This document shows, piece by piece, positions 55,415 through 60,263 of a DNA stretch of 64,000 nt (the first letter of the stretch is position 1; each line of letters starts with the position of its first letter). Source of the DNA: an uncultured Gemmatimonadaceae bacterium. Its GTDB lineage: Bacteria; Gemmatimonadota; Gemmatimonadetes; Gemmatimonadales; Gemmatimonadaceae. Below the pieces are notes generated by a model. That model was not told where the DNA came from, ran no database searches, and was given only the letters and a program-made list of their open reading frames with translations. The stretch is from positions 544,001 through 608,000 of the forward strand of contig CAVXGK010000002.1 of assembly GCA_963761305.1 (NCBI GenBank). The letters are read 5' to 3'. The translations under genes were made by a program, and so were the position numbers.

Positions 55415-56455
55415 TTGTACGATCGAGTCTGGGAACGCATCGGCGACATCGCGCGACTCGCGCCGTCGCCGCACAACACGCAGCCGTTTCGCATCGTGCC
55501 GCTCGGTCCGCACGATGCGAACATCGTCGTCGTCCGCGATCGCCTGCTGCCGCGCGAAGACCACGGCAATCTCTACATGTCGTCGGCGTTCGGCATCTTC
55601 GTGACGGCGCTCGAGCACGCGGCGCGGTTCGTGGGACGCGACCTCGTGGTGGACGTGCTGCCGTGCATCGACGTCGACACGCTGCATTCGGGTCCGTCGC
55701 GCGTGCTGCTCGGGCGCGCCACGCTCACCGACCCCGGTCCGGTCAATCCGGCCGAGCTGCGCTGGACGATGCGCCTCGAACCGCGCCACGGCATCCGCAC
55801 GCTGCTCGAGGCGCGGCGAACTTCGCGTCTCCCGTATCATGATCGTCCCGTGCTCGGCGCGAGCGTGAGCGCGCTCGCGCAGGTCGCCGCGGTGTACGGC
55901 CATCGGTTCCTCGCCGTCGACGACGTGCGGCTCGTGCGTCGCGTGCTGCGGCTCAACGCCGACGCCATCATCGACAACCTGCAACTCGGCGACGAGCGCG
56001 AAGAGATTCGCGGCTGGTATCGGTACGGAGAGACGCCGCCCGACGGCGACGGTCTCTGGGAGCGGCCGATGAACCAGCCGGCGTGGGAACTGCGCTCCGC
56101 CTTCACCACGCCGTGGTTGTACCGACTCCCCGGATTCCGGCAATTCGCGCGACGTCGCTATCTTCGCACGCAGCGCGGCACGCGGCACGTGGGACTTCTC
56201 TGCGGGCCGTTCGCCGAGTGGATGGATCTCGTGCACTCGGGCCGCATGCTGATGGCCTTCTGGCTCGAGATGGCGGCGCACGACATCTACATGCAGCCGA
56301 TGGGGTCGATGCTCACCAATCCGAAGTACGCCGAAACGATCGCGCGGCTGTTCGGCGTCCGCGACTGCTGGCTTGTGTTTCGCTACGGGTACAGCGACGA
56401 GCCGCCGCGCGCCCCGCGGCTCCGCAACATCGTCGAGCGTGAATCGGTGGTTTGA
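55415..56455 (+). CDS. Nitroreductase-fold (Acg-like, tandem-domain) FMN-binding protein
   Basis: LAPSPHNTQPF motif; second-domain RRTSR..Y and GRMLMAFWL..AAH...QPM; TTG start after GGAGG. Confidence 0.78.
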   Translation: MYDRVWERIGDIARLAPSPHNTQPFRIVPLGPHDANIVVVRDRLLPREDHGNLYMSSAFGIFVTALEHAARFVGRDLVVDVLPCIDVDTLHSGPSRVLLGRATLTDPGPVNPAELRWTMRLEPRHGIRTLLEARRTSRLPYHDRPVLGASVSALAQVAAVYGHRFLAVDDVRLVRRVLRLNADAIIDNLQLGDEREEIRGWYRYGETPPDGDGLWERPMNQPAWELRSAFTTPWLYRLPGFRQFARRRYLRTQRGTRHVGLLCGPFAEWMDLVHSGRMLMAFWLEMAAHDIYMQPMGSMLTNPKYAETIARLFGVRDCWLVFRYGYSDEPPRAPRLRNIVERESVV

Positions 56456-57905
56456 TCCCGTCGCGGGCCGGGCGTTGAGCCGGCTCGGCGACGTCGCGCT
56501 GTCGTCGTGGGGCGCTTATAGGGCGCTGTTCGCGCCCGTTTTCTCGACCAGGACGCGCGACTGGGTTGCGCGCACGCGCGCGTCGGCCGCGTTCTTCAAC
56601 GCGCGTCGCCGCGTGCCCGCCTATCAGGAATTCCTGCGCGAGCACGGTGCCCTCGATGTGACGCGATTCGAGGACGTCCCGGCGATGGACAAGGCCAACT
56701 ACATCAAACGGTGGCCGATCGAGCAGCTCTGCCAGGGCGGACGGCTGCCGACGCGCGGCGCCGTCATCGACGAGTCGTCGGGGTCGAGCGGGCAGGCGAG
56801 CAACTGGATTCGCGGACCGAGCGAGCGCGCCGCCGCGAGACGGCTCCTTCAGTTCGCCACGCGATCGGCCTTCGGCGACGAGCCGTTCGTGCTGCTCAAC
56901 GCCTTCGCGCTGGGCCCGTGGGCGACCGGCATGAACGTCTCGATGTCGCTCGTCGATCTGTGCGTGCTCAAGTCGATCGGCCCCGACGCGGCCAAGGTGA
57001 TCGGCACGCTCCAGCTGCTCGGCCCCAAGTACAAGTACGTCATCGCCGGCTATCCGCCGTTTCTGAAAGGACTCGTCGACACCGCGGACTTTGATTGGTC
57101 GAAGTTCGATGTATGCGCAGTCGTCGGCGGAGAAGGGATGTCGCAGCCGCTGCGCGCCGCGCTGAACCGGCGCTTTCGCAAGACGATCTCGAGTTTCGGC
57201 GCGTCGGACCTCGAGATCAACATCGCCGTCGAGACCGACTTCACCATCGCGCTTCGCGACGCCATCGCGTCGACGCCGGCGCTGGGCGAAGAGCTGTATG
57301 GCCGCGAGTCGCTGCCGATGGTCTTCCAGTACGACCCGCTCAACTACTTCATCGAAAGCGACGAGAATCGCAATCTGCTGTTCACGATCAACCGGCTGGA
57401 GAACGTCTCGCCGCGAATCCGCTACAACATTCGCGACCGCGGCGTCGTTCGCCCGGCGGGCCAAGTCGCCGACGTGGCGGCGCGACACGGCGCGCGCCTG
57501 CCGGCCCTCCAGGTCGATCTTCCGCTCCTGTTTCACTGGGGACGCCAGGACAACGCCGTCGGGTTCTACGGCTGCAAGATCACTCCGGAGGACATTCAGC
57601 ACGTCATCCTCCGAATCGACCTCCTCGGGGAGGGCGTAACCAACTTCGCGCTGCACCCCTACGAGGACGACGACGCCAACAAACGCGTCGAGATCTGGTT
57701 CGAGCTCGCCAACACGGGGGATCTTCCGGACGCCGGCCTGCTGCGCGACGCCGTTTTGCGCGAGCTCGCGTCGGTGAATCAGGACTTTCGCGAATCCATC
57801 AAGATGGTCCCGGCGGACCGGCGCCCGGCGGTGAAGGTCTTCGCGCAAGGGCAAAGCCCGTTTCCGGCGCAGGACATTCGGCTCAAGCGGCAGTACATCC
57901 TGTAG
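56439..57905 (+). CDS. Phenylacetate-CoA ligase / coenzyme F390 synthetase-like adenylate-forming enzyme
   Basis: RVPAYQEFL, ESSGSSG P-loop, GYPPF, GGEG, SFGASD, IRYNIRD; overlaps the upstream gene. Confidence 0.85.
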   Translation: MNRWFDPVAGRALSRLGDVALSSWGAYRALFAPVFSTRTRDWVARTRASAAFFNARRRVPAYQEFLREHGALDVTRFEDVPAMDKANYIKRWPIEQLCQGGRLPTRGAVIDESSGSSGQASNWIRGPSERAAARRLLQFATRSAFGDEPFVLLNAFALGPWATGMNVSMSLVDLCVLKSIGPDAAKVIGTLQLLGPKYKYVIAGYPPFLKGLVDTADFDWSKFDVCAVVGGEGMSQPLRAALNRRFRKTISSFGASDLEINIAVETDFTIALRDAIASTPALGEELYGRESLPMVFQYDPLNYFIESDENRNLLFTINRLENVSPRIRYNIRDRGVVRPAGQVADVAARHGARLPALQVDLPLLFHWGRQDNAVGFYGCKITPEDIQHVILRIDLLGEGVTNFALHPYEDDDANKRVEIWFELANTGDLPDAGLLRDAVLRELASVNQDFRESIKMVPADRRPAVKVFAQGQSPFPAQDIRLKRQYIL

Positions 57906-57957
57906 GCCCCTCTCCCCGATTTTGGGTGGACGAGTGGGCAGGTGGACAGGCGGCTTC

Positions 57958-58178
57958 CGACACGAGGCCCTCTACTTAGGTATATCCGCGGACCGCACTT
58001 TGACTACACGGAATTTTTTGCCGGATGCTGAAGTTCGATTCCAGAATGTTTAGCGTCCTCCATTGGTCGAGAACTCCTATTCTTGCTTGCCAATGACCAT
58101 TGTTACAGGTTCGTGACGGAGCACGATGTAGTCAAAGTCGCCTCCGCGGATAAGACATAAGTAGGGGGGCTCTGGTCG
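57958..58178. repeat. Inverted-repeat-bounded element (arms 57964-58010 and 58124-58172) with AT-rich structured core
   Basis: Complementary blocks CTACTTA/TAAGTAG, TATCCGCGGA/TCCGCGGATA and ACTTTGACTACA/TGTAGTCAAAGT in nested order. Confidence 0.9.
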
Positions 58179-58277
58179 TTGGCTTTTCGCGCGGGTCCGC
58201 GAACGACGCCAATCCGGACTGACGCGATTTTTGGATGCCGCGGTCACCCGACTGGTTCGTCCGGCCAGCGCATCGGG

Positions 58278-58586
58278 ATGGACCGAGCCGCGGATCAGAT
58301 CGCCGTGTTCGCGCTCCGTTCACGCCGCACGCCGCTGATTCTCGACCGGATCCGCGATCTGGATCGTCGAGTCACCCGTTCGGAGCGCGCGACCGGCACG
58401 CTCGATTCTCCGGTCGCGGAACTCGCCGGGATGGATAGACGAGCAGTCGCTCCAACCAGGTTGTCGGTCGTCCCGGCCAACGATCCGGTTCGATCGGCCG
58501 ACTTCCCATTCGCCGCGGCCATCGAACCAGTCGTGACGCGACACGCCAGTTTTTTCGAGCGGCCGGCCAACTGGATTTCGTTGTGA
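58278..58586 (+). CDS. Possible small hypothetical protein (102 aa)
   Basis: Open frame with moderately high GC3; no recognisable motif. Confidence 0.3.
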   Translation: MDRAADQIAVFALRSRRTPLILDRIRDLDRRVTRSERATGTLDSPVAELAGMDRRAVAPTRLSVVPANDPVRSADFPFAAAIEPVVTRHASFFERPANWISL

Positions 58587-58781
58587 GCCGACCGGATCGC
58601 TCGGTCATCGCACCGTTCTCGACGAGCGCCGCAGCGGATTCTGCGCCCAGTCGAATGGCCAGTTCGGTCGGGACGGCGTGTACGTCGGCCGTTCGACCGC
58701 CGCCGTCGCACGGGTCAGCGCCGCACCCGCTTGCATCTTCCGCGCACCGTATCCATCTATCCGCTCCAGCCTTCGAGATCG

Positions 58782-60263
58782 ATGATTTTCGTTCGCGGAC
58801 TCCCACCTCTGCGCGCACTCAGGAATCTTCGTCCGACGCGACTCTTGGTCGGCGCCCTACTCGTGTCGACGTTGCCGGCGCGAACCGCGGCGGCCCAGAC
58901 CGGACGCCTCGTTGGACAGGTCGTCGACAAGCTCGCCGGCGTGCCGCTCCCGTATTCGGGCATCTCCATCCTCGGTCAGTCGACTGAACGCCTGACCAGC
59001 GACAGCGGCCAATTCCGCCTCGACCTCGACGCCGGGACCGTTCGGCTGCGAGTCCGCCACGTGGGATTCACGCCGGTCGACACACAACTCGTCATCCGCG
59101 CGAACGACACGACGCGAGTCAAGATCGAGCTGGCACGAATTCCGGTCAGGCTGGCCGCGATGCGCGTCACCGACGCTCCGTGTCTGCTGCCGGGTGCGCC
59201 CGCCGCCACCGGCGACGCGCTGCCCCAGATCTTCGAGCAGCTGCAGCTCAACGCGGAGCAGTTCCAACTCGTGAACAGGCAATATCCGTTCACCTCCGTC
59301 GTCGAACGGCAGTTCAGCCGCACGGCCACGGAGCCGAAGAAACCGGAAGCCAATCCCGCGGGCCTGAACTTCGACACGCTCGAATTCGTGACGAAGACCG
59401 ACTCGATCAAGGTGCCGAGCGATCAACGATGGCGCTACAAGCCGGGCGAGATCATCATCTCAGCGGGCGTCGGGCCGCTCGGCGAGCGGTACGCGCTGCG
59501 GATTCCGACGCTCGCCGTTTTCGCCGACCCGGAGTTCGTCAAGCATCACTGCTTCCGAGACGGCGGCGACGTCGCGCTCGACGGGCAGAACTTTCGCCGC
59601 ATCGATTTTCGCGCGGCCGAGAACATTCGCGATCCCGACATCGACGGCACGATGTATCTCGACCCACGGACGTTCGTGATTCGCCGGTCCACGGTCTCGC
59701 TCTCGCGAAAGTCTCGCTACACGAGCTCCTACGACTCGGTGACGGTCGAAACGTCGTTCGATGAATTGGTCAGCGGCGTGCCCGTGATCACGAGCGCCAT
59801 AGGACGCAGCCTGCTGACCGCCGACGCCGGTGATCCCGGAAGCCGGAGCGCGATGCCCGACGGAAGCCGATTCGTAAGCGATCTCGAACGGCAGCGAGTT
59901 CGGGAGATTCGTTTCCTGCACGAAGTCCCGGGCGTGAGCGATACGCCGGGATTTGCCCGGGATCGCCGCGACCCCAAGATCATTCGACTCAGCGGACCCG
60001 GCGGAAACGCTCGGGTGGTCGGCGTGTTCGATGCCGACTCGGGCGAGCCGCTTCCGGGCACCGTCGTGCGCGACTCGGCGAGCAGCCGGATGGCCGTGAC
60101 GACGCCGACTGGGACGGTCAATCTTGGCTTCGTCCCCCGTTCGAGCGCGGTGATTCTGTTCGAGCACGCGGGCTACGACCGGCTCTCGATGCCCGTGTCG
60201 CTCACCCCGGCCGATACACTGCCCATCACGGTCATTCTGCACCGGTCGCGCGCGCCTCGCTAA
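58782..60263 (+). CDS. Secreted protein with carboxypeptidase-regulatory-like (beta-sandwich) domains
   Basis: Signal peptide ending AAAQ; GRLVGQVVD...TSDSGQF...VRHVGF and a second GVFDADSGEPL...HAGY domain. Confidence 0.8.
   Translation: MIFVRGLPPLRALRNLRPTRLLVGALLVSTLPARTAAAQTGRLVGQVVDKLAGVPLPYSGISILGQSTERLTSDSGQFRLDLDAGTVRLRVRHVGFTPVDTQLVIRANDTTRVKIELARIPVRLAAMRVTDAPCLLPGAPAATGDALPQIFEQLQLNAEQFQLVNRQYPFTSVVERQFSRTATEPKKPEANPAGLNFDTLEFVTKTDSIKVPSDQRWRYKPGEIIISAGVGPLGERYALRIPTLAVFADPEFVKHHCFRDGGDVALDGQNFRRIDFRAAENIRDPDIDGTMYLDPRTFVIRRSTVSLSRKSRYTSSYDSVTVETSFDELVSGVPVITSAIGRSLLTADAGDPGSRSAMPDGSRFVSDLERQRVREIRFLHEVPGVSDTPGFARDRRDPKIIRLSGPGGNARVVGVFDADSGEPLPGTVVRDSASSRMAVTTPTGTVNLGFVPRSSAVILFEHAGYDRLSMPVSLTPADTLPITVILHRSRAPR

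Follow-up and report, generated by a model that had tools for sequence, protein, structure and literature searches.

The window, a 64,000-nucleotide stretch of the genome that we call G000 (C2:544001-608000; genome 93% complete), contains an inverted-repeat element that probably consists of two promoters facing outwards, both read by a single ECF-type sigma factor. Sequence comparison points to the copy in the window being a gene-less insert. Elsewhere, the element belongs to a module consisting of an ECF-like sigma gene, the double-arm element, a 21-bp phased array and a gene for a helical protein of ~225 aa. We regard this sigma/21-base-repeat/helical-protein module as undescribed, the promoter type itself being known; no paper on it was found in a literature search that covered sources other than subscription papers.

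The initial annotation described inverted arms in nested blocks around an AT-rich core. The arms were found as claimed: CCCTCTACTTA (57968-78), TATCCGCGGA (57983-92) and ACTTTGACTACA (57997-58008) have their partners at 58127-38, 58143-52 and 58158-68. TTGCCG (58018-23) and CAGAAT (58042-47), 18 bp apart, are present as quoted, and the three hairpins proposed for the + strand of the core appear in the computed fold. AT-rich is an apt term for the core but not for the whole element, which has 50% GC; the flanking genes have 65-66%. The + strand of the element folds with -109.6 kcal/mol (z -8.29, 0/200 shuffles) and the - strand with -88.6 (z -5.18), the core by itself giving z -2.44 and -0.03, respectively. 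A search of Rfam 15 gave no match over the element at E<=10. As had been noted, the three flanking ORFs contain no recombinase, transposase or reverse transcriptase family. In contigs from two other soil studies, the left arm again stands between left flank and core, indicating that the element is no assembly artefact. Further copies, as well as the 21-bp array next to the element, escaped the first reading. The features are listed below.

Features of the insert and its neighbours, in window positions
Feature	Position	Strand	Description
Upstream gene	56373..57905	+	510 aa, no Pfam or NCBIfam family
G-rich tract	57907-57917	-	outside left arm
Insert (element and array)	57909..58704	.	absent from relatives; ends approximate; ~790 bp
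Worn octamer repeats	57924-57955	-	outside left arm
Left arm	57958..58011	-	predicted leftward promoter: TGTAGTC 58008-58002, 16 bp, ATATA 57985-57981, AAGTAG 57977-57972
AT-rich core	58012..58123	.	46% GC, three possible hairpins; worn homologue of family core
Right arm	58124..58178	+	predicted rightward promoter: TGTAGTC 58127-58133, 16 bp, ATAAG 58150-58154, AAGTAG 58159-58164
Degenerate 21-bp phased array	58220..58700	+	autocorrelation 0.37 at 21 and 42, 0.34 at 63
Downstream gene	58782..60263	+	carboxypeptidase-regulatory-like domain, PF13620/PF13715; start set by alignment to relatives

Measured from motif to motif, the distance across the site is 890 bp in G000 and 105, 24, 102 and 98 bp in the relatives G019, G005, G017 and G022; it is likewise short in G015 and G029, and in all six relatives the two flanking genes lie near each other. 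No duplication was seen at the ends of the insert. The upstream gene was found in 12/31 genus genomes, and the element was present at none of the 11 loci of this gene in relatives (one locus stops 137 bp past the stop codon). Counting these loci, the element would have been gained in G000. The insert consists of the G-rich tract, the worn octamers, the element and the degenerate array, and carries neither a sigma gene nor a helical gene. Comparable G-rich tracts lie beside other copies, as well as before the sigma start codon in loci L039/L218; the tract and octamers at 57907..57955 are likely a relic of a sigma-gene leader. For the array, shuffles gave a mean autocorrelation of 0.276 and a maximum of 0.340 in 1000, and its 21-bp excess was 0.21, compared to a genome 99th percentile of 0.14. 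The native leader of the downstream gene spans ~58705-58781. The upstream gene is conserved at 66-89% across 11 relatives. At the site corresponding to window 57906-58781, G024 (L182/L059, C19) carries an independent ~600-bp array of 21-bp periodicity with another unit and no arm pair; two lineages, G000 and G024, thus bear 21-bp arrays at one intergenic site.

BLAST and iterated profile searches of G000 gave 31 matches, corresponding to 27 elements (four long ones were each split in two), and the reversed genome, used as a control, gave none. Twenty-five elements are two-armed and two are single-armed. Their lengths range from ~180 to 475 bp, and their cores have a common layout that includes GTCA/TGAC repeats phased at 11 bp, which are likely operator sites. 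A 466-475-bp variant with ~250 bp of extra core and an inverted repeat of its own was observed at G000 C2:679469, C2:1923607, C2:2124123 and C1:1223363. Related elements were also found in loci of G005, G017, G019, G022 and G024. Scanning the genome collection with the exact pattern returned 1 locus, and with 2 mismatches the pattern was found in only 3/301 family genomes; the letters of the element are therefore clade-specific and fast-changing.

The link between the element and the module is regular. An element lies 370-820 bp upstream of 10 of the 12 helical genes of G000, a 21-bp array adjoins 24/27 elements, each on one side only, and four of the 27 adjoin a divergent sigma-like gene. In sigma-bearing modules, the counterpart of the left arm faces the sigma gene. 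Sigma profile matches were obtained in 14/31 genus genomes. At the 29 sigma loci examined, the helical gene was divergent in 24, co-oriented in 2 and not found in the examined stretch in 3. In 15/24 divergent loci, the arm pair scores above the 99% level of the null, lying upstream of the cognate ECF gene and facing it; the window copy has no adjacent sigma gene. Among the nine divergent loci below the threshold, five have weak arms that are yet in register by eye, one has a short-loop repeat, one has the region deleted, one had a shifted test window and one has none. Neither of the two co-oriented loci has an arm pair; in one of them, L202, a lone arm lies upstream of the sigma gene. Where a module lacks the sigma gene, there is often just one arm, directed towards the array (L087, L117, L118, L120, G000 C1:277 kb and C2:3053 kb). 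In G291, from another genus, the same design was found with other boxes. In G015 (C96, L210/L156), a module has lost its element and array by deletion, along with the helical gene's first half, and the sigma gene stands beside the remnant.

The helical protein (~225 aa, all-helical) was found in 43/301 phylum genomes searched and in none of the viral contigs. It matches no Pfam family; its Atlas neighbours are unnamed, DUF6261 being only a lead (0.88). The single-sequence model was poor, while the model from the alignment reached pLDDT 92, and a fold search with this model returned nothing above generic helical bundles.

Read outwards, each arm displays a 7-bp box and, after 16 bp whose first part is an A/T tract, a 5-bp box; AAGTAG or a variant follows at a distance of 3-5 bp. 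Box limits were fixed by a rule of our own, and 35 elements were compared after 3/38 had been dropped for a missing anchor. The identity of arms within and between these elements was 0.81 and 0.62 for box 1, 0.51 and 0.58 for the spacer, and 0.84 and 0.59 for box 2. In 12 sigma modules, the corresponding values were 0.83 and 0.45 for the boxes and 0.39 and 0.46 for a 6-bp spacer. Two conserved boxes at 16+/-1 bp with a free spacer are what is expected of an ECF promoter. The 5 bp directly before box 2 were also alike within elements (0.83, 12 sigma modules), a likeness beyond what a plain -10 element would call for, which argues against promoters.

The boxes appear to follow the sigma factor. 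Between modules with helical genes 89-99% alike, the sigmas are only 45-55% alike. Across 18 pairs with helical genes more than 85% alike, pairs that share members and are thus non-independent, box identity rose with sigma identity (rho 0.86) and did not depend on that of the helical gene (-0.07). A Mantel test on all 12 modules did not separate the two (sigma 0.64, helical gene 0.73). The boxes of the window element best fit the sigma module at G000 C1:408 kb (0.75, among 11 sigma-bearing modules compared), the next-best G000 module reaching 0.44. This sigma passes the TIGR02937 cut-off (48 vs 42.9 bits) and has the region-2 motif. The upstream regions of 30 other sigma-region-4 genes were checked and did not show the arm motif. 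Outside elements, scanning with a matrix detected just 2 weak sites, so that the motif is private to the module. In 12 regions searched, a sigma-54 pattern occurred once, as a loose match at a distance of 737 bp from the gene.

According to the sections available of a study of ECF41 sigmas, a two-box motif, TGTCACA-n16-CGTC, with a spacing of 16+/-1 bp lies upstream of both the sigma gene and its target (PMC3426412); ECF sigmas usually autoregulate and have subgroup-specific motifs, as stated in the accessible part of PMC7826278. The arms resemble these promoters in all of these respects: two boxes 16 bp apart, a position upstream of sigma and target, and motifs specific to a subgroup (PMC3426412, PMC7826278). 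They differ from the ECF41 promoters, as far as the available text of PMC3426412 describes them, in being back-to-back copies round a repeat-bearing core, together forming a 54-bp inverted repeat, in their target, a 21-bp array and an unannotated helical gene, and in the letters of the boxes. Moreover, unlike autoregulated ECF promoters, most copies have no adjoining sigma gene.

Alternatively, the arms could be binding sites at which the sigma-like protein acts as a repressor or architectural DNA-binding protein, and not start signals. The long stretch common to the two arms and the absence of the motif upstream of the other sigma-region-4 genes checked are in keeping with this. So is a subfamily of sigma-like proteins (L070:1277-1834, L076:1321-1851 and L121; two in G000 and one in G017) that lack the N-terminal half of region 2 and retain both arms. 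However, the 7-16-5 geometry is that of an ECF promoter, one arm leads via AGGAGG straight to a start codon (C2:2409277), and the C1:408 kb protein has its region-2 motif. Altogether, we consider pure binding sites quite improbable.

If the arms are promoters, the sigma of a complete module would use one arm to transcribe its own gene and the other to transcribe the 21-bp array with the helical gene. Both arms would be bound to keep matching the same fast-changing sigma, and it is presumably because both must match one sigma that they form an inverted repeat. The hairpin would then be a by-product of paired promoters. In the window, the likeliest reader in trans would be the C1:408 kb sigma. 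Transcription from the right arm would cover the worn array and could continue into the secreted-protein gene; no terminator was called between this arm and 58782, so that read-through is possible. The left arm, directed antisense into the 3' end of the upstream gene, would fire into that gene. The earlier proposal that the element drives the downstream secreted protein survives as a candidate by way of the outward arm, and not by an invertible sigma-70 promoter. If the promoter reading is true, the orphan copy could place the neighbouring gene under the control of the module sigma.

The same arms had first suggested a structured non-coding RNA in which a long stem closes a multiway junction. 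The covariation is indeed real: 19/40 consensus pairs change on both sides, a result matched by 0/500 shuffles. The window copy adds a strong fold (z -8.3) with G-U pairs and is strongly strand-asymmetric (-103.8 vs -85.2). However, inverted DNA sites that change together for one protein yield the same covariation as RNA pairs, and the other signs of an RNA are missing across the family. G-U-type mismatches number 91 and 70 on the two strands, and the same strand folds better in 15/24 elements and 12/24 cores, so that no family-wide strand bias was seen. The consensus retains just the arms and one GTCA/TGAC stem, the four-way junction being lost, single-arm forms occur, and no Rfam family matches. 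Covarying arms are therefore what remains of this proposal, and a structured RNA is very improbable. A class of strong, covarying hairpins that look like a non-coding RNA is thus explained as likely pairs of promoters in DNA, by which screens for structure can be misled.

An invertible switch that phase-varies the downstream gene had also been put forward, and we find it extremely unlikely. The array lies on side A of the core in 10 elements and on side B in 14, so that old flips or flank exchanges did take place over evolution. Against a switch, the core has an identical orientation in all 8 family elements beside a sigma gene, the arms differ in their spacer, and no invertase family was found in G000 (93% complete). 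The sigma-70-like site on which the proposal relied was not called by the scanner, which called no sigma-70 site at all, and both arms carry promoter-like boxes that point outwards. Contigs of 4 runs, including two contigs of two studies, showed only the reference orientation, with no strand-change joint listed (contigs drop rare variants).

A further proposal was a MITE. More broadly, the arms could be the recombination or transposition ends of a non-autonomous mobile element, MITE-like or folded as a single strand like attC, with the enzyme encoded elsewhere. Terminal inverted repeats, several copies and empty orthologous sites are present, as in MITEs, and so the multi-copy, presence/absence-polymorphic part of the proposal stands. 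Filled and empty sites occur in both directions, elements can be tandem or nested, and a module copy, 97% identical over 1,942 bp, sits at a new site. However, at the ends of 25 double-arm elements the longest common words were 4-7 nt, as in random pairs, leaving no target-site duplication beyond chance. Homology continues past the arms, up to 80 bp beyond one and ~770 bp beyond the other, into the sigma leader and the array. Single arms, moreover, are located where a promoter is needed. A transposase with these ends was found neither in 182 neighbouring ORFs nor in searches of G000 (93% complete) with a non-exhaustive set of families: Y1, resolvase, IS110 and DDE_Tnp_1 gave no match, and the 4 rve matches have no arms alongside. 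The only tyrosine recombinases found in G000, two in number, resemble XerC and XerD, which we take them to be. We therefore regard a mobile element of this kind as unlikely, and a promoter pair remains the preferred interpretation.

Some known elements come close. The Correia elements are bacterial MITEs with promoter activity. The attC sites and REPINs resemble our elements in the imperfect long palindrome, conserved ends, unpaired spacer, variable top and a GTAG near the ends, and attC also fits the description of paired boxes round an unpaired spacer. They differ in that here neither an integron integrase nor PF01797 (RAYT/Y1) was found in G000 (93% complete), no strand bias was seen, and the link to sigma, array and helical gene is fixed. 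MITEAba12, a promoter-active bacterial MITE, is similar in being small and multi-copy, with inverted ends, a variable core, polymorphic insertion and possible outward promoters, as far as the available part of PMC6382973 describes it. Compared to MITEs of the type described there (PMC6382973, same part), the element here has no target duplication, has ends beyond the arms, has an arm sequence that tracks the sigma, and has no transposase found. A Xer/dif site was rejected after a by-eye comparison with the dif candidate at C2:886794, one box being partly alike and lost in other subfamilies. This candidate (G000 C2:886767-886794, -) lies 43 kb from the GC-skew maximum. The one reverse transcriptase of G000 is a group II intron maturase, far from the window; it lies at L082:2706-3944 (G000 C1 ~821 kb) between two rve-domain matches and is probably inserted in an IS.

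How the copies spread can be judged from a few cases. The 1,942-bp module, which is sigma-less, occupies two sites. The second, filled by a recent copy, lies within a tract of octamer repeats, and four relatives have this tract without the insertion. It is one of 191 octamer tandem tracts in G000. Such tracts lie within 300 bp of 2/27 elements, compared to 2% at random, the strict pattern missing the worn tract of the window; an enrichment of octamers beside elements was set aside because the cases are too few. One gene-less copy retains relics of a sigma start and of a helical gene, consistent with a complete module that inserted and then underwent deletion. Most likely, we tentatively suggest, copies would have spread through host recombination at short repeats, as whole or partial modules, and then lost their genes.

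Five of six gene-less copies, from two subfamilies, stop right after the leader hairpin of the helical gene, short of the gene itself (G000 C1:494947, C2:148593, C1:192014, C1:102199 and C2:2602676), an arrangement that suggests a defined 3' end after this conserved hairpin. Up to three elements can also stand in tandem with no gene in the cluster, which a promoter role does not predict. Plain decay explains hairpin-bounded ends and tandem stacking less well. Because of these ends, and because of the unrelated array of G024 at the same site, the non-coding core (double promoter, operator-like centre, array and 3' hairpin) may possibly be what functions and spreads in a sigma-driven system not described before. 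Copies without genes would be kept since the RNA or DNA of their array acts in trans for the helical protein, and new insertions would connect host genes to sigma regulons that are private and diversify fast. We hold this extension only tentatively and think it rather less likely than its negation.

For the outward promoter pair itself, the family would provide a natural series of sigmas and promoters, in which sigmas only ~50% alike stand beside neighbour genes 89-99% alike, making rules of ECF specificity testable. The sigma/promoter pairs could serve as orthogonal switches. The element would, moreover, mark the probable control region of a module made of array and helical protein.

Two further observations were made in G000. 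At C2:2409277-2409280 (L027), an arm ends in AGGAGG with a start codon 8-10 nt on, opening another carboxypeptidase-regulatory-domain gene, possibly a captured one. Finally, a second family of ~36 hairpin repeats (~100-130 bp), for which an integron integrase was not found, lies among RelE-, HigB-, AbiEii- and Uma2-like genes in an arrangement resembling a cassette array, at C2:3.367-3.397 Mb, C1:1.727-1.731 Mb and elsewhere.
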